A DNA stretch of 63,059 nucleotides, the filler included, from Folioceros fuciformis (taxonomy: Eukaryota): the NCBI GenBank assembly GCA_049999805.1. It is 6 parts of 6 records of this genome, joined end to end, with 100 filler letters (N's around TTAATTAATTAA, not from the genome) between each part and the next. Parts side by side here need not be neighbours in the genome. Positions count along the whole stretch, not along the records: positions 21,963 to 40,126 come from JBNGIO010005775.1; 5 more parts are not named here. The stretch is one strand, 5' to 3'. A program made the translations under genes and the position numbers. Below are positions 21,963 through 59,789 of this stretch, piece after piece. Numbering within the stretch: the first letter of the stretch is position 1; each line of letters begins with the position of its first letter. The notes beneath the pieces were generated by a model, which saw nothing but the letters and a program-made list of their open reading frames with translations, was not told the origin of the DNA and searched no databases.

Positions 21963-24545
21963 ACACTGAAGAAGAGAACGCAAATGTTCCATACCCTGCA
22001 TTCAGTTATGACAGCAGTGATGGTGTTGAAGTCTCGCATTTTGATCAGACTAGTGAGCAAGCAAATGACACTGTAGAAGTTGATGCGGAGGATGATGTCC
22101 TTTCTTTGGATACTGATGATGGTGAAGTCGAGTTACCTGAACATGCTGATGTTGAGATGGTGGATCAGGATGTTACAGATGTACAAGAACCAGTTCCAGA
22201 TGCACCAACACATAGATATAGCTTGCGGGAAAGGAACAAACCCTGGAAGGATCCTCCGCTGGAAATGGAGGACTGGCGTCCCAATAAATCCAAGTCTAAG
22301 ACAAAGAATGCTAAGAGTGGATCAGGGAGTGCATCAGCTACCTCGATTGACACTCCAGTGGGGGCACAGGCTGTAGAGGGTGTGTCAGCTGGTGCTACAG
22401 AGACGTTGGAAGATGTACCAGCTTCAAGTGCATATGTCCAAGCTATGGTGGCAGCTAGTTCGGATCCTTTGGAGCCTGTCACTCTAACACAAGCTTTCAC
22501 AGGGTCAGAGGCGAAGTATTGGAAGAAGGTTGTGGATGATGAATATGCATCTATAGTCAAGAATGGTACCTGGTCACTTGTAGAACTCCCAAAAGGCAGA
22601 AAACCCGTCTTTTGCAAATGGGTCTTTAAGCTCAAGAAGAAGGCTGATGGCAGCATTGAGCGAAATAAAGCACGGTTAGTTGCCCGGGGTTTTTCACAAG
22701 TACCAGGAGTAGACTTTACCGAGACATTTGCTCCGGTTGTAAAATTTACAACTCTTAGGATGGTGTTAGCTCTGGCAGCTCATCTGGATTTAGATCTGGA
22801 GCAAATGGACGTGAAGACCGCTTTCCTACATGGTGAGCTTGAAGAGGAGATCTATATGCAACAGCCAGAGGGTTATGAGCAACCAGGAAAGGAACATTTA
22901 GTATGCAAGTTGAACAAAACGTTGTACGGGCTCAAGCAAAGTCCTAGGGCATGGAATCAGCGTATAGATGCATACCTGAAGAAGCTAGGCTTCAAACAAG
23001 GAAGAGCTGATCATGGGTTATACATGCTAACAGAGGATGATATGTTTCTTATCTTGTTGTTGTATGTGGATGATCTTGTCTTGGCTGCCACTAAGGGAAG
23101 ACGGAGTCTGATGCGTAAAGTCAAGGAATTGCTGAAGCGTGAGTTTGAAATGACTGAACTTGGAGACTTAACTTGGTGCCTGGGCATAGAGATAGCAAGG
23201 GACAGAATAGTTAGAAAGCTGACGATTTGTCAGCGTAAATATATCAAGGACAGCTTGAAAAGGTTTAACCTGGCTGAAGCAAATGGGTGTGCAACACCGC
23301 TTGCTGTTGGTCTGAAGTTAACCAGAGTTCTGGAGCCCCTGACACCTGAGGAGGTGAAGGAAATGTCCCGGACTCCTTACAGACATGCAATTGGCACGTT
23401 AATTTACCTTGCAAATGTAACAAGGCCAGACATTGCATTCTCTGTCAGCATGGAGTCACTGTTTCTCGACAACCCACATCCTGAACATTGGAGCCAAGTT
23501 AAGCGTACATTCAGATATCTGAAGCAAACACCAACTCACGGAATAACATATGTAGGCATGGAAGAGAGTAAACTTACTCTGGAAGGCTTTTGTGATTCAG
23601 ACTGGGCCTCGGACCTGAGCAACAGGAAGTCACTGTCAGCATTTGTGTACACGTTAGAAGGAGGGCCTGTTTCCTGGTCAAGCAAGAAACAGGCAACAGT
23701 GTCTACTTCTAGTACCGAGGCCGAATACAAAGCTCTGATAGTAGCAGCAAAGGAAGCGATCTGGCTAAGACGGAACTTATCTGATGTTGGGATGGCCCAG
23801 AAGGAGGCAACATTGGTGCACTGTGACAACCAGGGTGCAATTGCGCTTACAAAGAACCCAGTGTTCCACTAAAAAACAAAGCATATAGAAATCCATCACC
23901 ACTTCATTAGGGAAGTAGTAGCAGATGGACAGATTGCTGTGACCTACATTGCTACATCAGAGAACCCAGCTGATCTTCTAACTAAGGCCCTGTCTAGAGA
24001 GCTGCATACCAAACATGCAAATAGACTAGGGCTTACAGCTTGTGACAGTTGAAGACGCGCAACTAGCTGCAAGCCACTGAACATTAGTCACTCAGCAAAG
24101 TCTCGGCAGAGTAGAAGTTGTGGCACACTCCCAGACAAGACTCAGCATCCATTCCAACTCACAGTAGGTAGTATCCAGTCTTTCTGCAGATGTATGATGG
24201 GGGCGCCCAGTTTGTGCCCTTGCAGACGAGCATACATCCATGCTTGGAACCTACGGGCGAGAGTCGCCGTTGAGATAAGCTCAGGACCTGTGACGTCGAA
24301 AAGGAGAGTGTTGCCTCAGCCTTGATAGTCTCCGGGAGTAATGCTGCATGGACAAGGTGCGGCGGCGCGCAGTTGTGTTGAAGAGTGTCGTCCCTGGCAA
24401 CCTTGAGCTCTACGATTAGGGTGTCGAACCTGGCAGTGACCCAGACGAGTGTGGCGATCAGTTGCTCCAGCAGCCGCCGAAGGACTGTCAGCAGTCGGAG
24501 AGTAAGCGCAATGGAGAATTAGGGCGTAAGCTCAAGTGGGGGTGT
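21963..24545 (+). mobile_element. Ty1/Copia retrotransposon pol 3' half (RT plus RNase H), nearly intact
   Basis: ORF 22106-23872: KARLVARGFSQ, QMDVKTAFLHG, LYGLKQSPRAW, LYVDDL, FCDSDWA, STEAEY. A single TAA at 23870 is followed by in-frame KTKHIEIHHHFIRE...ADLLTKAL to 24052. PPT-like aagtggggg near 24535. Confidence 0.95.
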
Positions 24546-27690: not shown

Positions 27691-30600
27691 TGTGTCTTGC
27701 CTCACAGATTGGCAAACCTTACTTATTGCAAAGCAACCTCTGAAGTGTCGAAATCACCTTTCCCATTCGAGTCAGAGGGTTGGCCACAAAACCATACGTC
27801 ACGTGTTCATAATACAATGTCATCCTTGCATGAAATCGTGCGACCTTGATCACAGTCATTAGGTCGTACAATAAGATGTGTTCATCGCCGTCCTCTATGC
27901 CTGCAACAAGTTGCTCCCAATATTTTTCTCGTCATTTCCGCTTTTATGCTTATATGCACTACATTCCAACGTGTTGCTAGTCTTGTTCATTCACCCTTGT
28001 CTATTGGCCACAATGGCACCGACACGAGCCCTTATGCCTTATTTGGACTTACGTTCGTCACAATTCCATATACATCGGCACCATTGGAGCATGGGTTGGT
28101 GGGCGTGCATGTATAGGAGCACTGGCGGGTAGCACTACCATCACTGATCTACGGCAAGATGTCGTTTGCAATTCATTGTCCATGACTATTATGGTGACCC
28201 GTTTGCACGACCTACCCAACATTGGCAACAACGTGGCAGGCTGGTTTTGGGCTGAGGGTTGGGTACATACAAAGTGGCATGTGATTTGCGATTCGTTCTC
28301 CATGCATGGTGGGTCCACACACTACCAAAGTTGTGTTCACGCAGACATTGCCATCTTCCCAACCAAGGGTTCATTCTTGTTTGTGTATAAAGTGTACTGG
28401 ACGATGTCATGCTCGTCGTGAGGCTAAGCCCTAGTAAACCGTGTGCAACCTTTGGTGACCTGTATGCCTACATTGCGCACTTGTTGGTGATTCCTAAAGC
28501 AAACAAGGGTTGACAGACATCTTGGGCTATGTTCTATGGAATACCGATACAGTGATACCATCTGTAAAACAAAGTTTTGCACGGTGGTGTAGGGTTCAAT
28601 CTGTCGGACGTCACAAATCTGCTCCATTCTGTCGTAGGGTGCCATCTAGGGGTCCTGATGGGAACAAACCCAAGGGTGTCATACCATTTTTTTTTATGCA
28701 CATGTCAATGTTCAGCCTTGTGTGCACACGCCAAGATGCATATGTCTCTCTTACCTCCATGCACACCTAGATCACACAGCCNNNNNNNNNNATCACACAG
28801 CCTTGGATGCATATGTCTCTCTTACCTCCATGCACACCACTACCCAGCCTCAGTTCATTTCCGGGTATTTCCCACTCCATGACACAACCCGGTGAAGTGT
28901 ACGTCCCTTCCGCGAAATGGTCATGGGCACGAATCCTACCGCACATTTCATGCAAGGTGAAGACGAAGGCATGACGAAGCTACCTCCTATTCCCTCCTAT
29001 AGCTAGCAATGTACTATACTAAGTTGGGCCCCGCGACGTGGACCTTTTGCGGTATATTCTAGTATGAAGCACAAATTTGGGAAAACAAAATGTGTGTTCA
29101 TCCATTGTCCTTATTATTGATGGAAATGTGCTCTTTACCTCTTCTCCTCATACACGGTGCACTGTGAGGTGTGGCCCTTTGCAAGTATGTGCGCAATGGA
29201 CATTCCACACTACAACATTTGGCATAGATGTGTGTCCAACCCGCAAATGGGTCATTTGCTAGCAATGCCACCGTTCCCTCGCTCTCCCACAGTGCACCTT
29301 ATATGGTAATGGTCAAAGAGGCCTCGATCTGGCAACGAGGACCTTGTATGCTAATGGTGACATAGGCATCGGCTACACAAATGGGACCTTATAGGAGTGA
29401 TCGAGGATGGCTGTGGTGCAGAGGCAACACCAAAAATCATTGCAACCATAAGAGGAGGAAAGTGGGATTGGAGCAATAGCGAATGAGTTTAAGATAACAT
29501 AACATAAATATGATTTATATCATGTTGAAATATAACAAGGCGCTGCCTGAAAGATGCGAATGAAACACACACGCACCGTTTACGATATGTTATGTTAACG
29601 TCTAAGAGTGCACTGCCCAGAAAGGTTCCAGGGACAGCGCTTAGTCTTTTAAGTACCTGGCACAAATCTGGTGCTTCAAGCTTTGGACATGTAATTCACA
29701 CCTGATCCTATGGAGCAGGCCAAGGCTAGGCCGTTTCAACGATCTACGGCACGTTGTCCGGACTTTTGTGAAGAGACTTTCAGAGGTCTTGATTCGTCGA
29801 TCTGGACCGGCCGGACTTTCACCTCATCCCTGTATGTCCCAGAACAGTTGAAGAGGCTGCAACTGCGACGGAGTGCGAGAAATACTGCCTCTTCGATACT
29901 GCACTGGCAATCAGAGGTCTCGAGGTAGAAGCGCAGTTTCCACAATGACGACCAAGGTAAGGTTGCGTTTCAGCTCTACTTAATGATGGTTAAGGAATTG
30001 TTTGCCCAGGCTCTGGGGGGGTGATCAAGGTGCCAGCAGTCTGACGATCCATGGGTGACTTTGAGGCGAAATGTTAGCCTCTGGCAGAACGTCCATCTCC
30101 AGGGCAAGGGCATTTGCATTTGCATTGGCATGGGAATCTGCATTCGCATTTGAACCAGCGTTTCGAAGTTGAAGCTCCTCGGTTGCTAATCACTTTCATT
30201 GCAGCTTGTCGAGAAGAGGCAGACTGACTGGTAAGCAGAAGCAGATCCTAGCAACCTGTTTAATTTGATGCGGAAGATGGCTGTGTGAGGTGCTTCATTT
30301 GGAAGGACGAGGCCTTGTTGGGCCAAGTGATTCCGTGCTGTTGAGCCACAATAAAGCTTGGATCAGCGATCGCGCTTCAGGAGCAGGCCGGGCGACGAGC
30401 GTGGTCGAGTATGGATACGTATAACACATGTGCCACGAGACCTGTGGCTGGCCAGCAGTGCAGTCCTTCGGAAGTCCTCCAGCTCCCATGTGCAGGCCTC
30501 CGGTTCCCACCATATACGTATGTATAACACGCATCCCACGAGACCTGTAGACTCTTTCAGAGCCCAACCTCGTGAACGGATCGGTTTCGAGCATAGAAAA

Positions 30601-31513: not shown

Positions 31514-32920
31514 ATGGCAGCAGCTGGAAACAAGTCAAGCCAGCCTTGCATCTTGGGGATGGGTACTGCCAATCCTTCAAAGGTCATATGGATGAAGGAC
31601 TTTGCAAAACGTTATGGCCAGGCAATCGGTGTGTCTGCAGACGTCCAACTGATTGCAGACCGAATTTGTAAGCCTCTCAACAGAGTGACTGCTGGTTGCA
31701 TACACTTAGATGCTAGTGACATTGGCCTACTTGTTACATGCTTATCTTGCTGCATCAACCAATCTCCTCCAGGTCAATCAACGGGCATCACCCGAAAGCA
31801 CGTTGCTGTCACGTACGACCAGTATGCCAAGAATAGCAATCTGAGAACGTTTGGAGCCCCATCACTGGATGACCGATTTGCTTTGTTTGAGTCTGAGGCC
31901 ATACCACTTGCCCAGGAGGCTGCGAACAAGGCAATCCATGAATGGGGTGTGGATCGTTCTGCTATCACCCATGTCATCACATTCTCTACAAACGGGATGC
32001 CTTCACCTGGCATAGACATGCAGCTCATCAAGGCTCTCAAGCTAGACAGGACCACAAAGCATTTCACCGTTTCATTCATGGGATGCCACGCAGGCCTGAT
32101 CGGCATTCGGACCGCCGCAGAGATCGCGTTGGCTGATCCAAATCACCGCGTTCTGGTGGTGTGCGTGGAGCTCAACTCGTGTCAGGTAGTATCATATCCC
32201 TCAAACAAAGCATGCGTACATCTACCAGACATCTGACATGAGGATCTATGGACCATGGCTTCTGTTCCCAGGCACAACCCGTAAATCCAAATGACATCGC
32301 AAACAACCTAGTTGTGGCTTGCATATTCGGAGACGGGGCAGCGGCAGTGGTGATCGGCGCCAAACCAACCGAAGCAGAGAAGCCTATCTACGAGCTCCAC
32401 CGCTCCAACACAAGCTTTATCCCACAGTCAGACACTGCCATCATAGCTCGCCTGACCCAGTCCGGACTCAATGCAGCGCTCTCCAAAAGGGTTCCGCAGT
32501 ACGTGGGGGAGAATGTTGCTGGCTTCGTTCATGAGATCCTGGAGGGCACAGGCTTGAACTTCGATACAATCAACTGGGCGCTACACCCTGGAGGCAAGGC
32601 CATTGCAGATACCGTGGAAAAGAACTGCAAACTTAGGCCAGAACAACTGCACGTCACCAGGTACGCTGAACAACCCCAAGGCTACAAATGTTGCAAGCTT
32701 GTCACCATGGTTTTATCCCGAACCCAGGCTCATGCTCGATGCCACGTGCCCCCGCAGGAGTATTTACGACATCTACGCCAACATGGGAGGACCCACTGTC
32801 ATTTTTGTACTGGACAAGTACCGTAAGGAGAAGGAGGAGGTGCCGACCTGTGAGTGGACCCTGGCCTTGGCTTTTGGGCCTGGAATCTCTGTCGAAGGGA
32901 CGCTCATGAGGATGGTCTGA
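31514..32920 (+). CDS. Type III polyketide synthase (chalcone synthase superfamily), ORS/(2'-oxo)alkylresorcinol synthase-like; 4 exons: 31514-31667, 31773-32185, 32272-32660, 32758-32920 (372 aa)
   Basis: GT-AG introns give a continuous frame, and intron 1 splits the conserved Cys codon as in plant CHS. Catalytic triad: Cys (FMGCHAG), His (WALHPGG), Asn (YANMGG). Also [17 protein letters not shown] and AFGPGISVE. Confidence 0.93.
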
Positions 32921-34028: not shown

Positions 34029-37000
34029 TCACGCTCGTCCCTTACAACTGCAACAGCCAGCTGTGAATCGATGGACACGGTACCCATCCCTTACGACAAT
34101 GTCTCTCTGTTCAAGCCTTGACATTATCTCCGTGGAACTGTGACAGTCGCTGCACATGCGTAAATTCTTCGTTACCACCAGAGGTGCCCCGCTCGGAGTG
34201 TTCAAGAGACCAAACGCCAAAGCTAGCTTCTCAGCGTGCCCACAAAGCGCATCCTCCTTTTCCTTCTCACACACTGGCTTCAACACTAACTTCGTGTGAG
34301 GTACGTGGCCTCCTTCCTGCTTCAAACGTTCATTTGTGCTCTCTACCTTGAACGCAATATCCTTTCTCTTTGCTCCCACCAGAAATTTGTGGACCTCCTT
34401 GTTTACCTCAATGCTCGCCACTGCAGGTTTCTTGTTAGCTCCTGCTGCCTTTCTCTCTATTTCGATCCTGTCTACATCGGTCCACCTACCTGCATCTGCG
34501 TAGGCATTGGCCATGAGCACATAAGCAGAAGCCCTTTGAGGCTCCAGCTTCACAATGCTTTCAAAACACCGCACAGCTCTCTCTACATCCCCGTGACTTT
34601 TGCAGGCATTCAACAGAGACGTCAAGGCCACGACATTACTTTGGCCGTCACATGATAGTAGCAAATTCTCTGCCTCATCTAAATGGCCAGCACGCCCAAG
34701 AAGGTCAATCATGCAGGTGTAATGCTCAATAGTAGGTTTGATGCCATGTTGTTCAGCCATGGAATCAAAGTGTTTCCGACCCTCCTGGACCAGTCCCTCA
34801 TGACTGCATGCTACTAGCAGGCAAGTAAAAGTAGCCTCGTTAGGATGAACGCCAGCAACCAACATCTCCTCAAAACAAGCTAATGCCTTATAGCCATCAT
34901 CACAACCACCATACCCAGCAATCAGGGCATTCCATGTCACCACATCCTTTGTGGCCAAGCTGTCAAAAACCTCGCGCGCACCTTCCAGTTCACCACATTT
35001 CGCATACATGTCCACCAGGCAGTTGCCCACCACCACGTCATTCAGCAGTCCTCTTTGGACAATCTGTGAGTGCAGCTGCATGCCCTTCTGTAAGGCACCA
35101 GTGCTTGCACAGACCTTCAACAGGCAAGCAACAGTGACATGATTAGCCAAAATAAGGCCCTCCTCCTCCATTTGTCCATACACAACAAGCGCCTCTTGGC
35201 CGAGCCCTTGCTGAGCATAACCAACAATTAAGGCATTCCATGTTACCACGTCCTTTGTGGCCATGCTGTCAAACACCTGACATGCGTCTTCCAGTTCACC
35301 ACATTTTGCATACATTTCGACCAGGCAGGTGCCCACCGCTACGTTATCCAGCAGTCCTCTTTCCACAGTCTGTGAGTGCAATTGCATACCCTTCTGTAGG
35401 GCGCCAATGTTTCCACAGGCCCTCAGAAGGCAAGAAAAGGTGACATGGTCAGCCAAAATAAGGCCCGCCTCCTCCATTTGTCCATACACAGCCAGCGCCT
35501 CTTGACAGAATCCTTGCTGTGCATACCCACCAATCAGCGCTGTCCATGTCACCACATCCTTTGTGGCCAAGCTGTCAAAAACCTCGCGCGCATCTTCCAA
35601 TTCACCACATTTCGCGTACATGTCTACCAGGCAGGTGCCCACCACCACATTATCCAGCAGTCCTCTTTGGACAATCTGTGAGTGCAGTTGCATACCCTTC
35701 TGTAAGGCACCAGTGCTCGCACATGCCTTCAGAAGGCAAGCCAAGGTAACATGGTCAGCGAAAATGTGGCCCGCCGCCTCCATCTGTCCGTACACAACAA
35801 GCGCCTCTTCACCCAATCCTTGCTGGGCATACCCAGCAATCAGGGCATTCCATGTCACCACATCCTTTGTGGCCATGCTGTCAAAAACTTCGCGTGCATC
35901 TTCGAGTTCACCACATTTCGCATACATGTCCACCAAGCAGTTTCCCACCAGTACATCATCCAGCAGTCCTCTTTCCACAATCTGTGAGTGCAATTGCATG
36001 CCCATCTGTAAGGCACCAGTGCTTCCACAAGCCTTCAGAAGGCAAGCAAAAGTAACATGGTCAGCCAAAATATGGCCTGCCCTCTCCATTTGCCCATACA
36101 CAACAAGCGCTTCTTGGCCAAGACCTTGCTGTGCATACCCAGCAATCAGCGCTGTCCACGTCACCACGTCCTTTGTGGCCATGCCGTCAAAGACCTGGTG
36201 TGCGCCATCCATTTTGCCACATTTTGCATACATGTCCACCAGACAGTTGCCGACCACTACATCATCCAGCAGTCCTCTTTCAACAATTTGTGAGTGTAGT
36301 TGCATGCCCTTCTGCAAGGCACCAGTGCTTGCACAGGCCTTCAGAATGCACGCAAAAGTGACATGGTCAGCCAGAATAAGGCCTGCCTCCTCCATTTGTG
36401 CGTACACAGCAAGCGCCTCTTGGCCCAATCCTTGCTGTGCATACCCACCAATCAGCGCTGTCCATGTCACCACATCCTTTGTGGCCATGCTGTTAAAAAC
36501 CTCTCGAGCATCTTGCAGTTCACCACATTTCGCATACATGTCCACAAGGCAGTTGCCAACCACTATATTATCCAGCAGTCCTCTCTCTACAATCTGTGCG
36601 TGCAGTTGCATGCCCTTCTGTAAGGCACCAGTGCTTCCACAGGCCTTCAGAAGGCAAGCAAAAGTAACATGGTCAGCCAAAATAAGGCCAGCCTTCTCCA
36701 TTTGTCCATACGCAACAAGCGCCTCGTGGCCCAATCCTTGATGTGCATACCCAGCAATCAGGGCATTCCATGTCACCACATCCTTGGAGGCCATGCTTTC
36801 AAAAACCTCGCGTGCCGCTTTTGTTTTGCCACATTTTGCATACATGTCCACCAGGCAGTTGCCTACCACTACATCGTCCAGCAGTCCTCTTGCGATAACC
36901 TGTGAGTGCAGCTGCATGCCCTTTTGTAAGGCACCAGTGCTTGCACAGGCCTTCAGAAGGCAAGCAAAAGTAACATAGTCAGCCAAAATAGGGCCCGCCT

Positions 37001-38492
37001 TCTCCATCTGTCCGTACACAACAAGCGCTTCTTGTCCGAGTCCTTGCTGCGCATACCCAGATATCAGGGCATTCCATGTGACCACATCCTTCGCGGCCAT
37101 GCTGTCAAAAGCGTGGCGTGCCTCTTTCATGCTGCCACATTTTGCATACATGTCCACCAGACAGCTGCCAACAAACAAGTTAGTTGGAATGCCACTCTGC
37201 ACTACATCACAGTGCACTTTTCTGCCAGATTCTAAGTCTGCAGCAAATGCACAAGCTTGAAGGGCAGCTACAAAGACGTGAGCATCAGCCGTCACACCTG
37301 ATCTACGCATCTCATGGTAGAGTTGCACTGCTTCTTTAGCTCTCCCGTGTTTAGCATGGGCAGAGATGATGGAAGACCACGTGAAAACATCTGGTTTGCC
37401 CAGCCTGGTGAACACATCCATGGCCTCCTCCACCCTTCCTCCACATGCATACATGCGCAATATATGGTTCCCCACGTATGCCACCGACTCGTACCCGAGT
37501 TTGACACTGAGATCATGAACCCGTCGTCCCACAACCAAGTCCTTCTTAGCTGTACACAGTTTTAGCACAGTGCAAAAGAGAGACTGAGAAATATCAGCGT
37601 CTGTTTGCGCCGCCAGAGATTCCAGGGCTCCAACAGCCTCAGAAAGCCTCCCCTGCTGACACAACATGCGCACGGTTCCAGCCGTTACCACGGCCATTTC
37701 CGATCCAGCGCGCCAGCCAGCTTCAGGCTTATCCGACGAGCTGGATTGTGAAGAAGAGGCACCAACGCCCATCTGTAAATCGAGGGAAATGAGCTGCTCA
37801 TCAACCCAAGCTGGCTTAAACATGTCATTTAACCACAGCACCTCGCCGGACCCCTTACGCCGGAAGTCAGGCAAACGGGAGGAGCTCTTCTTGTCCCGTC
37901 TATTGTCCCACCACATGGTAGGGTCCAGAAACAATTGTTGCCACAAATGCTCCTGCTCCCGGCGAGGACCATCGATGGAAATCCCGTCCCCACCCACACA
38001 TTTTCTGGGTTGTGGAAGTGCTGGGCTCCTGAGACTGCTGCACCCGGAGCCCATTTCCGATTCTGCATGCATCTGAGATCGAGGACTGACACCGTGACCC
38101 AACTCCCTATCCAAGGAAACGAGTTTCTCATCAACCCAAGCGGGCTTCAACATGTTCAACCACAGTACCTCGCCTGACCCCTTACGCCGAAAGTCAGGCG
38201 AACGGGAGCTCTTCTTGTCTCGTCTGTTATCCCACCACATTGAAGGATCCAGAAAAAATTGTTGCCACAATTGCTCCGGCTCCTGGAAACGACCACCGCT
38301 GGAAAAGCCGTCCATGCCAAGACACTTTCTCGAAAGTGGAAGTGCAGAGCTCCTTACACCGCTGCACCTGGGATCCCTGTTCGCCAGAGGTGGACTCCGT
38401 GCGATGAGTTGAGAGGGAGCTCTTGGTAGAATTCCTGTACACCCAAAAATCTGTTCGGTCCACACCGGGTCCGGTTGCCGCACTGTGGCCAT
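34029..38492 (-). CDS. PLS-class PPR RNA-editing factor with E1-E2-DYW:KP (GRP-type) domain and two N-terminal OSB-type PDF motifs; single exon, 1487 aa
   Basis: About 29 P/L/S motifs including P2-L2-S2, then E1/E2, KKPAVASIEV, GHAEKLA, KNLRMCSDCH and HRFTAGCCSCKGRA*. N-terminal LWQQFFLDPSMWWDNRRDKKS.R.PDFRRKGSGEVLWL occurs twice. Confidence 0.96.
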   Translation of the reverse strand: MATVRQPDPVWTEQIFGCTGILPRAPSQLIARSPPLANRDPRCSGVRSSALPLSRKCLGMDGFSSGGRFQEPEQLWQQFFLDPSMWWDNRRDKKSSRSPDFRRKGSGEVLWLNMLKPAWVDEKLVSLDRELGHGVSPRSQMHAESEMGSGCSSLRSPALPQPRKCVGGDGISIDGPRREQEHLWQQLFLDPTMWWDNRRDKKSSSRLPDFRRKGSGEVLWLNDMFKPAWVDEQLISLDLQMGVGASSSQSSSSDKPEAGWRAGSEMAVVTAGTVRMLCQQGRLSEAVGALESLAAQTDADISQSLFCTVLKLCTAKKDLVVGRRVHDLSVKLGYESVAYVGNHILRMYACGGRVEEAMDVFTRLGKPDVFTWSSIISAHAKHGRAKEAVQLYHEMRRSGVTADAHVFVAALQACAFAADLESGRKVHCDVVQSGIPTNLFVGSCLVDMYAKCGSMKEARHAFDSMAAKDVVTWNALISGYAQQGLGQEALVVYGQMEKAGPILADYVTFACLLKACASTGALQKGMQLHSQVIARGLLDDVVVGNCLVDMYAKCGKTKAAREVFESMASKDVVTWNALIAGYAHQGLGHEALVAYGQMEKAGLILADHVTFACLLKACGSTGALQKGMQLHAQIVERGLLDNIVVGNCLVDMYAKCGELQDAREVFNSMATKDVVTWTALIGGYAQQGLGQEALAVYAQMEEAGLILADHVTFACILKACASTGALQKGMQLHSQIVERGLLDDVVVGNCLVDMYAKCGKMDGAHQVFDGMATKDVVTWTALIAGYAQQGLGQEALVVYGQMERAGHILADHVTFACLLKACGSTGALQMGMQLHSQIVERGLLDDVLVGNCLVDMYAKCGELEDAREVFDSMATKDVVTWNALIAGYAQQGLGEEALVVYGQMEAAGHIFADHVTLACLLKACASTGALQKGMQLHSQIVQRGLLDNVVVGTCLVDMYAKCGELEDAREVFDSLATKDVVTWTALIGGYAQQGFCQEALAVYGQMEEAGLILADHVTFSCLLRACGNIGALQKGMQLHSQTVERGLLDNVAVGTCLVEMYAKCGELEDACQVFDSMATKDVVTWNALIVGYAQQGLGQEALVVYGQMEEEGLILANHVTVACLLKVCASTGALQKGMQLHSQIVQRGLLNDVVVGNCLVDMYAKCGELEGAREVFDSLATKDVVTWNALIAGYGGCDDGYKALACFEEMLVAGVHPNEATFTCLLVACSHEGLVQEGRKHFDSMAEQHGIKPTIEHYTCMIDLLGRAGHLDEAENLLLSCDGQSNVVALTSLLNACKSHGDVERAVRCFESIVKLEPQRASAYVLMANAYADAGRWTDVDRIEIERKAAGANKKPAVASIEVNKEVHKFLVGAKRKDIAFKVESTNERLKQEGGHVPHTKLVLKPVCEKEKEDALCGHAEKLALAFGLLNTPSGAPLVVTKNLRMCSDCHSSTEIMSRLEQRDIVVRDGYRVHRFTAGCCSCKGRA
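34944..37085 (-). repeat. Seven near-identical 306-bp (102-aa) P-L-S triplets
   Basis: KDVVTW recurs at exact 306-bp intervals from 37085 to 34943. Confidence 0.95.
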
Positions 38493-40126: not shown

Positions 40127-40226
40127 NNNNNNNNNNNNNNNNNNNNNNNNNNNNNNNNNNNNNNNNNNNNTTAATTAATTAANNNNNNNNNNNNNNNNNN
40201 NNNNNNNNNNNNNNNNNNNNNNNNNN
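40127..40226. other. Artificial scaffold spacer N44-TTAATTAATTAA-N44 (also at 11161, 21863, 51413, 57535)
   Basis: Identical 100-bp construct carrying a six-frame stop 12-mer, found five times. Confidence 0.97.
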
Positions 40227-57634: not shown

Positions 57635-59789
57635 AAATTGATAGATTCAAGGCTAGGTTGGTGGTGAAGGGATACTCCCAAGAGGAGGGCATTGACTACA
57701 ATGAGACATTTGCACCAGTTGCCAAGTTTGCATCCATCAGAACCTTACTTGCAGTGGGAGCAATGTATGATTTGGAGATTCATCAAATGGATGTGAAAAC
57801 AGCATTTCTAAATGGGGACTTGGAGGAAGACATTTACATGGAGCAACCCCAAGGCTATGTAGTTATGGGCAAGGAGAACATGGTTTGCAAATTGAAGAAA
57901 GCTCTTTATGGATTGAAGCAAGCTCCGAGAGCTTGGTATCAAAAGATTAACTCATATCTTTTGGAGCAGGGTTTTCGGCAATGCACATCGGATGAGAGCA
58001 TCTACATTTTTGAGGTCTCCCAAAGTAAGGTAATCTTAGCCATATATGTGGATGATCTTATCTTGTTGAGTCCATCTTTAAGCAGTATTGATAAAGTGAA
58101 GGAGATGTTGTCAAAGAAGTTTGAAATGAAGGACTTAGGGAACATNNNNNNNNNNNNNNNNNNNNNNNNNNNNNNNNNNNNNNNNNNNNNNNNNNNNNNN
58201 NNNNNNNNNNNNNNNNNNNNNNNNNNNNNNNNNNNNNNNNNNNNNTCCGTGCGCATTAGTGAAAGACACATTAGATCCTTCAAATCTCACTACCAATCCT
58301 AGAGAGGTGGTTGCACTCACGGAAAACAAGTTCTTCCCCAAGCCTGGTACGTATAGCACCCTTTTCAACATCCCACGCACTACTCCGTTAGGTGTGGTCA
58401 TATCCATTGCCACAACACCTTCCCCCTCACACATTTGGATTGAATTATCACCCAAATAGATCTTGGTAGTAGCAATGGACTTGAAAGATTGGAACCACTC
58501 ACGCCTATTGGTCATGTGCTCCGTAGCTCCCGAATCAATGTACCATTCTTCGACTTGCTTGGAGGGATGATGTGTGCACACAAAAGCTTCCTCATACTCT
58601 TCCACGAAGTTTCCTTGACTCTTTGTCTTCTCATCTCGATCTCTCTTGAAGCAATTCCTTGCAAAATGTCCAACCTTGCCACAATAATTGCAAGTGAGAT
58701 TAGATCTACGATTTCTCCCCGTTATCTTGTTGAGTCCATCTTTAAGCAGTATTGATAAAGTGAAGGAGACGTTGTCAAAGAAGTTCGAAATGAAGGACTT
58801 AGGGAACATCAACTATTGTCTTGGAATTGAAGTGCGGAGAGATAGGGCAGCACGTATCATCAGGCTTGGTCAGCAAGGGTATGTTGAGGGATTATTGGAG
58901 CGATTTGGAATGATGGATTGCAAGCCTATTGGGACCCCTCAAGATTTAGGTGTGAAGTTGTCTAAGGTTGACTACTCATCAAATGATGGGGAGGAGCATG
59001 AGATGAGTAACATCCCATATAGGGCAGCAATTGGAAGTTTGATGTATGCCATGGTAGGAACACGTCCAGACATTGCAAAGGCAGTGGGAGTAGTGAGCCA
59101 ATTTATGCAAAGCCCGGGAAAGCAACATTGGATTGCGGTGAAAAGGATCATGCGATACTTGAGAGGTACAAGTGATATGTGGTTGGAATTTCTCGAGTGG
59201 AATCAAATACCATAATATTATTGGGTATTGTGACTCCGATTGGGGAAGTGATCTTGATGATAGAAGATCAACTACAGGATATACTTTTATTTTAGGAGGA
59301 GGTGCCATTACCTGGAATAGTAAGAAGCAACCCACGGTGGCCATATCGACAGTTTAAGCTGAGTACATGGCATCCACACAAGCCACCAAGGAGGCCGTAT
59401 GGTTGAGAAAGCTCATGGAGGAGATTGGTTATGAACAATTGCATCCGACCACTCTTAGGAGCGATAGTCAAGGAAGTATGGCCTTGATCAAGAATCCAGT
59501 GCATCATGCAAGGACAAAGCATATTGACATTCAACATCACTTTGTACGTGAGAAGGTGAAGTTATTGGAGGTTACCTTTGAATATTGCAACACTGAGGAA
59601 ATGGCTGCAGATTTCTTAACCAAGGCAGTGAGTAAGTTCAAGTTTGAGAAATGCAGGGGACTACTTGGACTGAAGCAAACTCAAGTGCGCTGAGTGGGAG
59701 TGTTAAGCATGATTAATGTTGATATTAATTAGTGCTAATCCAGCTTATTGAGTTTGTACTAATTAGTGGTAAGAGTGATTAAGGTTATG

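Follow-up and report, generated by a model that had tools for sequence, protein, structure and literature searches.

A gene of Folioceros fuciformis (GenBank assembly GCA_049999805.1) encodes, in one open reading frame (ORF), two copies of the PDF module known from organellar single-stranded DNA binding (OSB) proteins, followed by a long array of pentatricopeptide repeats (PPRs), an E motif and a DYW deaminase-like domain. It lies at positions 34029..38492, on the minus strand, of a 63,059-nt stretch of DNA (here called the window; six parts from six records of the assembly, joined end to end with 100 filler letters between each part and the next), in the part taken from JBNGIO010005775.1. In the usual picture, a PPR editing factor has a targeting peptide followed by an RNA-reading array and a catalytic end. 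Judging from its domains, we conclude that the gene is nuclear and intact and that its product is a PLS-class PPR editing factor belonging to the DYW:KP subclass (reverse, U-to-C type). The protein appears to be an editing factor with an added OSB-type module that has relatives in several lineages and that we have not found described in print. The fusion itself is supported by the single frame, by the selection acting on the PDF cores and by the recurrence of the same arrangement in other proteins.

A single frame joins two PDF modules to a PPR editing factor

The ORF at 34029..38492 (minus strand, stop codon included) starts with ATG and encodes 1487 amino acids (aa) without an internal stop codon, and the coding sequence is readable without an intron. 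There is an in-frame stop codon 12 codons 5' of the ATG, and no run of N falls inside the ORF, the nearest being at 28782-28791 and 40127-40170. An earlier interpretation of this DNA, made without database searches (the sequence-only reading), had proposed one uninterrupted ORF here with the PDF, PPR and DYW:KP modules all in the same frame, and both proposals were confirmed, with the PDF cores in addition proving to be under selection. From the N to the C terminus, the protein consists of a disordered leader, two PDF modules, ~30 PLS-type PPR motifs, an E motif and the DYW deaminase-like domain, as follows.

34029..38492, minus strand: whole coding sequence, a single open frame of 1487 aa
38283..38492, minus strand: leader, aa 1-70, rich in R, P, S and G, with 9 basic and 4 acidic residues, predicted to be disordered
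38109..38282, minus strand: PDF module 1, aa 71-128, a domain found by hidden Markov model (HMM), with matches to OSB-type proteins and a predicted local confidence (pLDDT) of >90
37959..38108, minus strand: linker between the PDF modules, aa 129-178, low pLDDT, nearly neutral evolution
37779..37958, minus strand: PDF module 2, aa 179-238, an HMM domain with all 9 invariant family columns kept
34623..37709, minus strand: PLS-class PPR array, aa 262-1290, from Pfam PPR matches and a manual register parse
34910..37169, minus strand: tandem amplification within the PPR array, 306-nt unit, 7.4 copies, 84% matches
34407..34595, minus strand: E motif (E1/E2), aa 1300-1362, PF20431
34032..34430, minus strand: DYW:KP-type domain, aa 1355-1487, PF14432, with KKPAVAS box, HAE, KNLR lysine, CSDCH and terminal GRA

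The composition of the leader suggests that it is possibly an organelle targeting peptide.

The N-terminal repeats are homologous to the OSB PDF motif and are under selection

An HMM built from both repeats placed the PDF-like modules at aa 71-128 (nt 38109-38282) and aa 179-238 (nt 37779-37958); the E value of 1.7e-41 for module 1 is a score against a model seeded with that same sequence. The sequence-only reading had noted two W-rich repeats at nt 37779-38276, and while the repeats and their location agree with the HMM, the duplicated unit turned out to be larger than claimed, extending over aa 43-136 and aa 151-246 with 79% nucleotide identity between the two copies.

We then compared aa 1-250 with 1.84 billion representative proteins by phmmer, which returned 562 proteins at E<=0.001. 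Of these, 138 had E<=1e-10 and 16 had E<=1e-30, a match well outside what chance would give. Among those that carry an OSB name (names were taken from cluster look-ups) are "protein OSB1, mitochondrial-like" of Populus (P0031, E 1.4e-23), "organellar single-stranded DNA binding protein 3" of Euphorbia (P0046), OSB3 of Chenopodium and Lupinus, an OSB2-like protein of Tanacetum and OSB1-like proteins of Bidens and Phtheirospermum. We concluded from these matches that the W-rich repeat and the PDF motif of OSB proteins are homologs, so that the identification made in the sequence-only reading holds. Nine columns are invariant in a 40-sequence PDF alignment (W, W, D, R, P, D, F, L and P), and module 2 has the family residue at each of them.

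Comparison of the two copies revealed how they have evolved since the duplication. Whereas the PDF cores gave a rate of nonsynonymous substitution (dN) of 0.078 and a rate of synonymous substitution (dS) of 0.546 (dN/dS 0.14), the linker between them gave dN 0.376 and dS 0.529 (dN/dS 0.71). Selective constraint on the cores next to a nearly neutral linker is a pattern expected only if both PDF modules are translated and useful.

For each PDF module, AlphaFold2 confidently predicted two helices with a small three-stranded sheet between them (pLDDT >90 for module 1); a model of PDF module 2 alone had a pLDDT of 89.3 and a predicted template modeling score (pTM) of 0.75, and confidence was low for the leader (block mean pLDDT of 46-59 over aa 1-70) and for the inter-module linker. 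Searches by profile and by structure returned little for this region. Pfam, which has no PDF model, gave no family at E<=1 for aa 1-250 alone, and a sequence search of the same segment against the Protein Data Bank (PDB) gave only a noise match (E 1.1). Foldseek comparison of a two-module model with the PDB yielded no match at E<=0.001, and the 18 found at E<=10 were not credible. In a fold-only alignment of the single-module model with 48,161 chains, the best Z score was 4.2 and no chain reached Z>=5, a result that shows neither a known nor a new fold.

PDF copy number varies from 1 to 12 per protein among the matches listed. The highest numbers are found in P0003 (nine modules in 719 aa), P0004 of Kingdonia uniflora (12 in 1160 aa) and P0013 (11 in 908 aa), and these 9 to 12 tandem modules are far above the 1 to 4 given for OSB proteins in the portions of the literature seen. 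In P0048 (Coptis chinensis, KAF9616283.1), three PDF modules precede a kinesin motor domain; this gene model of 1526 aa may be two neighboring genes fused by annotation. The top-scoring PDF neighbor for both modules is P0070, a protein of 162 aa with ~61% motif identity, which has one PDF and in which BLASTP found no PPR array; it could be either a fragment or a PDF protein in its own right. Short contigs of another sample join across the 336 or 434 bases between the PDF modules (37863-38200 and 37822-38257); these joints, from short contigs at 90% likeness, are weakly consistent with single-PDF paralogs in a related organism.

The C-terminal end is of the DYW:KP type

The E motif PF20431 matches aa 1300-1362 over the whole of its profile (positions 1-63 of 63, E 7.5e-15), and DYW_deaminase PF14432 matches aa 1395-1485 (E 3.8e-32). 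The last 198 residues, comprising E2 and the DYW domain, align over their full length with 9kfx_A (E 1.9e-57) and also with 7o4e_A (E 8e-30). In the former alignment, KKPAVAS stands opposite kkePGcS, placing KP where 9kfx_A has PG, and HAE takes the place of HSE, while CSDCH and the KNLR lysine (in VTKNLRMC) are conserved. The C-terminal triplet is GRA rather than DYW. Counted from the KP lysine, an assumed start of numbering, the domain is 133 aa long and the KNLR lysine is at position 88.

Published work on OSB and DYW:KP proteins is cited here from excerpts of the papers concerned. According to these, DYW:KP domains are recognized by KP in place of PG, by Ala or Cys after the zinc-binding His (HAE or HCE) and by a variable terminal triplet, and have a conserved active-site lysine (Lys88) that is needed for U-to-C activity (PMC9478123, PMC11845758). 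Hornwort DYW:KP proteins fall into DRH and GRP subtypes by terminus (PMC9478123), and the activity of natural KP proteins is described as still unknown (PMC11845758). By these published sequence criteria the C-terminal domain is a DYW:KP domain. The assignments of E1/E2 and of DYW:KP in the sequence-only reading are thus borne out, the former by the full-profile match and the latter by KKPAVAS, HAE, the KNLR lysine, CSDCH and GRA.

The 13 closest relatives over the E2-DYW part have 52-71% identity. HAE is common to all 13. The box is KP in six and KA, KV, KL or MP in five, and PG was seen there in none; in the remaining two the box lay beyond the last 140 residues, which were the part viewed. 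Two of the 13 end in GRP (P0182 and P0184), two in DRH (P0183 and P0185) and the rest in other non-DYW triplets. The GRP and DRH termini appear to fit the hornwort subtypes, which would agree with a hornwort source.

The PPR array is a tandem amplification that appears to be functional

Pfam PPR PF01535 matches the array in 20 stretches (E 1e-150), and PPR_1, PPR_2 and PPR_3 match it too. A register parse resolved 10 P-L-S triplets (36, 35 and 31 aa), which makes ~30 motifs. The PLS array of the sequence-only reading was therefore confirmed, its count of ~29 motifs giving way to one of ~30. Seven of the 10 triplets form a tandem array of a 306-nt (102-aa) unit, with 7.4 copies at 84% matches. 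Across the 21 pairwise comparisons among these seven, mean dN was 0.095, mean dS was 0.471 and dN/dS was 0.20, and the triplets are under purifying selection. With a mean dS of 0.47, the amplification is similar in age to the PDF duplication (dS ~0.54).

The code positions (fifth and last residues) of the seven tandem triplets are as follows.

P motifs, triplets 1-7: ND ND TD TD ND TD NN
L motifs, triplets 1-7: AD AN AD AD AN SN AD
S motifs, triplets 1-7: ND ND ND ND TD TD ND

The triplets differ at P5 (N or T), at S5 (N or T) and at the last position of L (D or N). Under the usual PPR code, these positions predict a U/G-rich target. Variation is found at 5 of the 6 code positions, compared with 39 of the 96 other columns (raw counts, no statistical test), which is suggestive of a working reader. 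From the triplet dN/dS of 0.20 and the varying code positions, the array looks functional.

The PDF-first order recurs in ferns and lycophytes

An N-terminal PDF followed by a PPR array was also found in 7 of the 150 phmmer matches listed (P0006, P0078, P0092, P0096, P0098, P0126 and P0150). The sources include the ferns Adiantum capillus-veneris (KAI5076972.1 and KAI5061374.1) and Ceratopteris richardii (KAH7429238.1) and the lycophytes Selaginella (XP_024517303.1) and Diphasiastrum complanatum (KAJ7231026.1). An eighth PDF-PPR protein, P0159, came from a separate search with aa 1-250 among proteins of 137-438 aa, which gave 7 matches, and a word-indexed homology search with aa 60-245 among proteins of 817-2603 aa gave no match among 878 candidates. 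As in the F. fuciformis protein, the PDF modules of the fern and lycophyte proteins (1-3 per protein) stand directly before a PLS-type PPR array. They differ from it in that no DYW domain was seen in the seven listed proteins, either by Pfam (six of the seven scanned) or by BLASTP with the DYW domain of this protein, and in PDF number, which is one or two except for the three of P0006. These proteins are annotated as hypothetical or as generic PPR proteins, and some may be truncated gene models.

We also looked for the PDF module in the opposite direction, starting from the deaminase-like domain. Two of the 13 closest DYW:KP relatives carry an N-terminal PDF, namely, P0182 (aa 60-118, ending in GRP) and P0185 (aa 46-104, ending in DRH), and none was found in the 12 more distant DYW proteins of the same search. 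The idea in the sequence-only reading that the PDF motif might be tied specifically to DYW:KP proteins is thus unsupported on both sides, since PDF-PPR proteins of ferns and lycophytes have no visible DYW domain and only 2 of 13 KP relatives have a PDF. On these two facts, PDF-PPR is a broader seedless-plant architecture, of which the present gene is the DYW:KP version. Going by the recurrence of the PDF-first order, the fusion is not a one-off invention of a single U-to-C editor. In nearest-neighbor scoring of 359 PDF instances, 15 of them PPR linked, PPR-linked and OSB-linked motifs were intermixed; the PDF motif is too short and too uniformly conserved to decide between one and several origins of the fusion.

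Possible roles of the PDF modules

PPR arrays bind RNA with their N-terminal motif toward the 5' end. In the mechanism that we favor, the array would read ~30 nt of single-stranded organellar RNA and the E/DYW:KP end would act on the base immediately 3' of the PPR footprint. Since the PDF modules are N terminal, this polarity would place them, on their flexible linkers, 5' of the ~30-nt footprint, or they might reach a neighboring strand, and there they would provide a sequence-independent grip on single-stranded nucleic acid. They could hold the editor at the single-stranded DNA (ssDNA) of the organellar nucleoid, at transcription bubbles, R-loops or replication or recombination intermediates, where it would meet nascent transcripts. 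Because the PDF motifs of OSB proteins are reported to favor ssDNA and all invariant residues are kept here, we tentatively prefer a role for the modules as a nucleoid/ssDNA tether by which the editor is brought to transcripts as they are made. Several points weigh against such a tether. The preference for ssDNA is carried over from Arabidopsis OSB proteins (PMC4166229), the Foldseek and fold-only searches gave the PDF fold no solved relative that would support a binding mode, and a PDF is missing from 11 of the 13 closest KP-type relatives, which makes the module dispensable for the DYW:KP enzyme as such. The tether could also be given a wider meaning, in which PDF-PPR proteins are an unrecognized lineage-wide class in seedless land plants whose ssDNA-binding module couples RNA readers, natural U-to-C editors among them, to the nucleoid, editing being cotranscriptional and tether dependent and the module possibly being the accessory part that synthetic KP editors lack; we regard this larger proposal as unlikely.

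It could instead be that the PDF modules bind RNA rather than DNA, gripping the transcript 5' of the footprint, raising affinity and keeping the target unfolded, and so acting as a built-in helper in lineages that, to our knowledge, lack the accessory editosome proteins of seed plants. The modules are at the N terminus, the end of the array that faces the 5' side of the RNA, they are joined to the array by linkers predicted to be flexible, and the same N-terminal placement is seen in E-type PPR proteins of ferns and lycophytes; furthermore, PPR binding would create a high local concentration of RNA, at which even a weak affinity for RNA might be effective. However, AtOSB1 and AtOSB2 favor ssDNA over RNA in the published excerpts (PMC4166229), and most of the close KP relatives (11 of 13) do without such a grip, so we consider an RNA-binding role somewhat unlikely, if worth keeping in view. 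Alternatively, the modules might need no contact with nucleic acid at all and serve in protein-protein interaction or sorting, for example by joining OSB oligomers or by binding another nucleoid or editosome component. This would be in keeping with the tetramer formed by AtOSB2 (PMC6963530) and with a copy number of 1 to 12 per protein, which resembles that of adaptor repeats, but it is improbable, given that ssDNA binding is the only PDF function reported in the excerpts (PMC6963530, PMC4166229, PMC6451138).

Two other possibilities concern the gene product and its substrate. The N-terminal region might lie outside the working product, either because translation starts at a downstream Met (e.g., M266, before the first PPR motif) or because the gene is an unexpressed, recently expanded and decaying paralog. 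Thousands of short contigs, 90-95% alike, align along the gene in four runs, with no single piece reaching across it, and point to a paralog family of very large size; one of these runs contains exact pieces of both flanks and may stem from the source sample, so that it is not independent support. In addition, the array has arisen by tandem amplification, and the terminus is GRA where the closest relatives have GRP. Nevertheless, the 1487-codon frame is intact, as are all catalytic motifs, dN/dS is 0.14 in the PDF cores next to a near-neutral linker and 0.20 in the triplets, and the PDF-first order recurs in distant taxa, all of which makes a nonworking N terminus highly improbable. Finally, the PDF modules might bring the DYW:KP domain to ssDNA, where it would convert bases. 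The presence of a module of ssDNA-binding type is the only point in favor of this, whereas the specificity reader is a PPR array, a known binder of RNA, and PDF modules also occur on PPR proteins that have no catalytic domain whatsoever; we give action on ssDNA almost no credence. The nucleoid tether therefore remains the reading that we favor, in the tentative terms given above.

Novelty and significance

No link between PDF and PPR was found in the full-text literature, a search in which most subscription papers and supplements fell outside the coverage, and the papers searched describe the PDF motif in OSB proteins only. The suggestion in the sequence-only reading that this fusion had not been characterized before stands within the same limits. 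The main text of a 2026 kingdom-wide survey of domain fusions in editing factors contains neither "OSB" nor "PDF" (PMC13386178), and the single occurrence of "OSB" in a 2023 review is an author's name (PMC10226603). As Pfam has no PDF model, surveys of domain fusions that rely on Pfam cannot see the PDF-PPR architecture.

A conserved extra nucleic acid-binding module on a subset of editors would offer a testable handle on where in the organelle editing happens, and likewise on what helps PLS arrays in the lineages that are said to be without seed plant accessory proteins. It also bears on tool building, where the design of U-to-C editors has so far drawn on nothing but consensus PPR and DYW:KP parts; excerpts of the designer KP work mention cross-linking and a lack of data on natural proteins (PMC9478123, PMC11845758).

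Genomic setting

The neighboring ORFs in the window are those of ordinary plant nuclear DNA and include chalcone-synthase-like ORFs, a Copia-type reverse transcriptase, a RING-finger ORF and a LETM1-like ORF. Two adjacent ORFs, at 31514-32236 and 32248-32826 (both plus strand), the former matching the chalcone/stilbene synthase N-terminal domain (E 1.7e-30), may together form one type III polyketide synthase gene that is interrupted by an intron or a frameshift. The Copia-type pieces are at 22157-23872 (plus strand; RVT_2 reverse transcriptase, E 3.4e-76) and 58135-58809 (minus strand; a gag-like ORF with a zinc knuckle and a Pol beta-barrel domain). Opposite the PPR gene there are antisense ORFs at 35563-36741 (392 aa), 36300-36623 (107 aa) and 37666-38076 (136 aa), all on the plus strand. 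They have most likely arisen as a side effect of the codon composition of the coding strand, which is repetitive and skewed. No poly-A run that might mark retroposition was present within 2 kb 3' of the stop codon or 1.6 kb 5' of the start codon. The whole window contains 24 runs of N, 10, 44 or 100 letters long and 1390 N in total, the 44-N runs being paired with 12 bases between them; they could be assembly gaps or masked stretches.

Comparison with known systems

The solved PPR-DYW structures (the synthetic 9kfx, the At3g63370 DYW domain 7o4e and DYW1 7w86) are of the DYW:PG (C-to-U) type, and unlike the present protein they have a PG box, HSE and a DYW terminus and lack a PDF module. They share with it the zinc-binding HxE, CxDCH and the KNLR lysine.

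With the DYW:KP PPR proteins of hornworts, lycophytes and ferns, the protein shares the PLS array, the E motifs, the KP box, HAE and a non-DYW terminus, although this terminus is GRA here rather than that of the GRP or DRH subtypes. The N-terminal PDF modules are an addition made in this protein and in 2 of its 13 closest relatives, whereas the excerpts of published DYW:KP descriptions cover the PPR and C-terminal domains only. The designer editors KP2, KP3 and KP6 were built from DYW:KP PPR proteins.

OSB proteins consist of an SSB-like domain followed by 1 to 3-4 PDF motifs of 50 aa, which carry the ssDNA binding (PMC6963530, PMC4166229, PMC6451138). The PDF motif of AtOSB1 is sufficient for ssDNA binding (PMC6963530), AtOSB1 and AtOSB2 favor ssDNA over double-stranded DNA or RNA (PMC4166229), and AtOSB2 assembles as a tetramer (PMC6963530). 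Most of the listed phmmer matches likewise carry the PDF in their C-terminal half, and when 10 typical matches were scanned for the SSB/OB domain PF00436, it was found in 3 above the Pfam cutoff and in 3 more below it. The F. fuciformis protein has in common with OSB proteins a PDF module of ~50-60 aa with all invariant residues and a copy number that is variable among proteins. However, whereas OSB proteins have an SSB-like OB-fold domain and then C-terminal PDF modules, this protein has N-terminal PDF modules and then a PPR array and a deaminase-like domain, and neither PF00436 nor any other OB-fold match was among the 25 of its 30 Pfam families at E<=1 that were listed. We conclude from this domain order that the protein is not a member of the OSB family and borrows only its PDF module.

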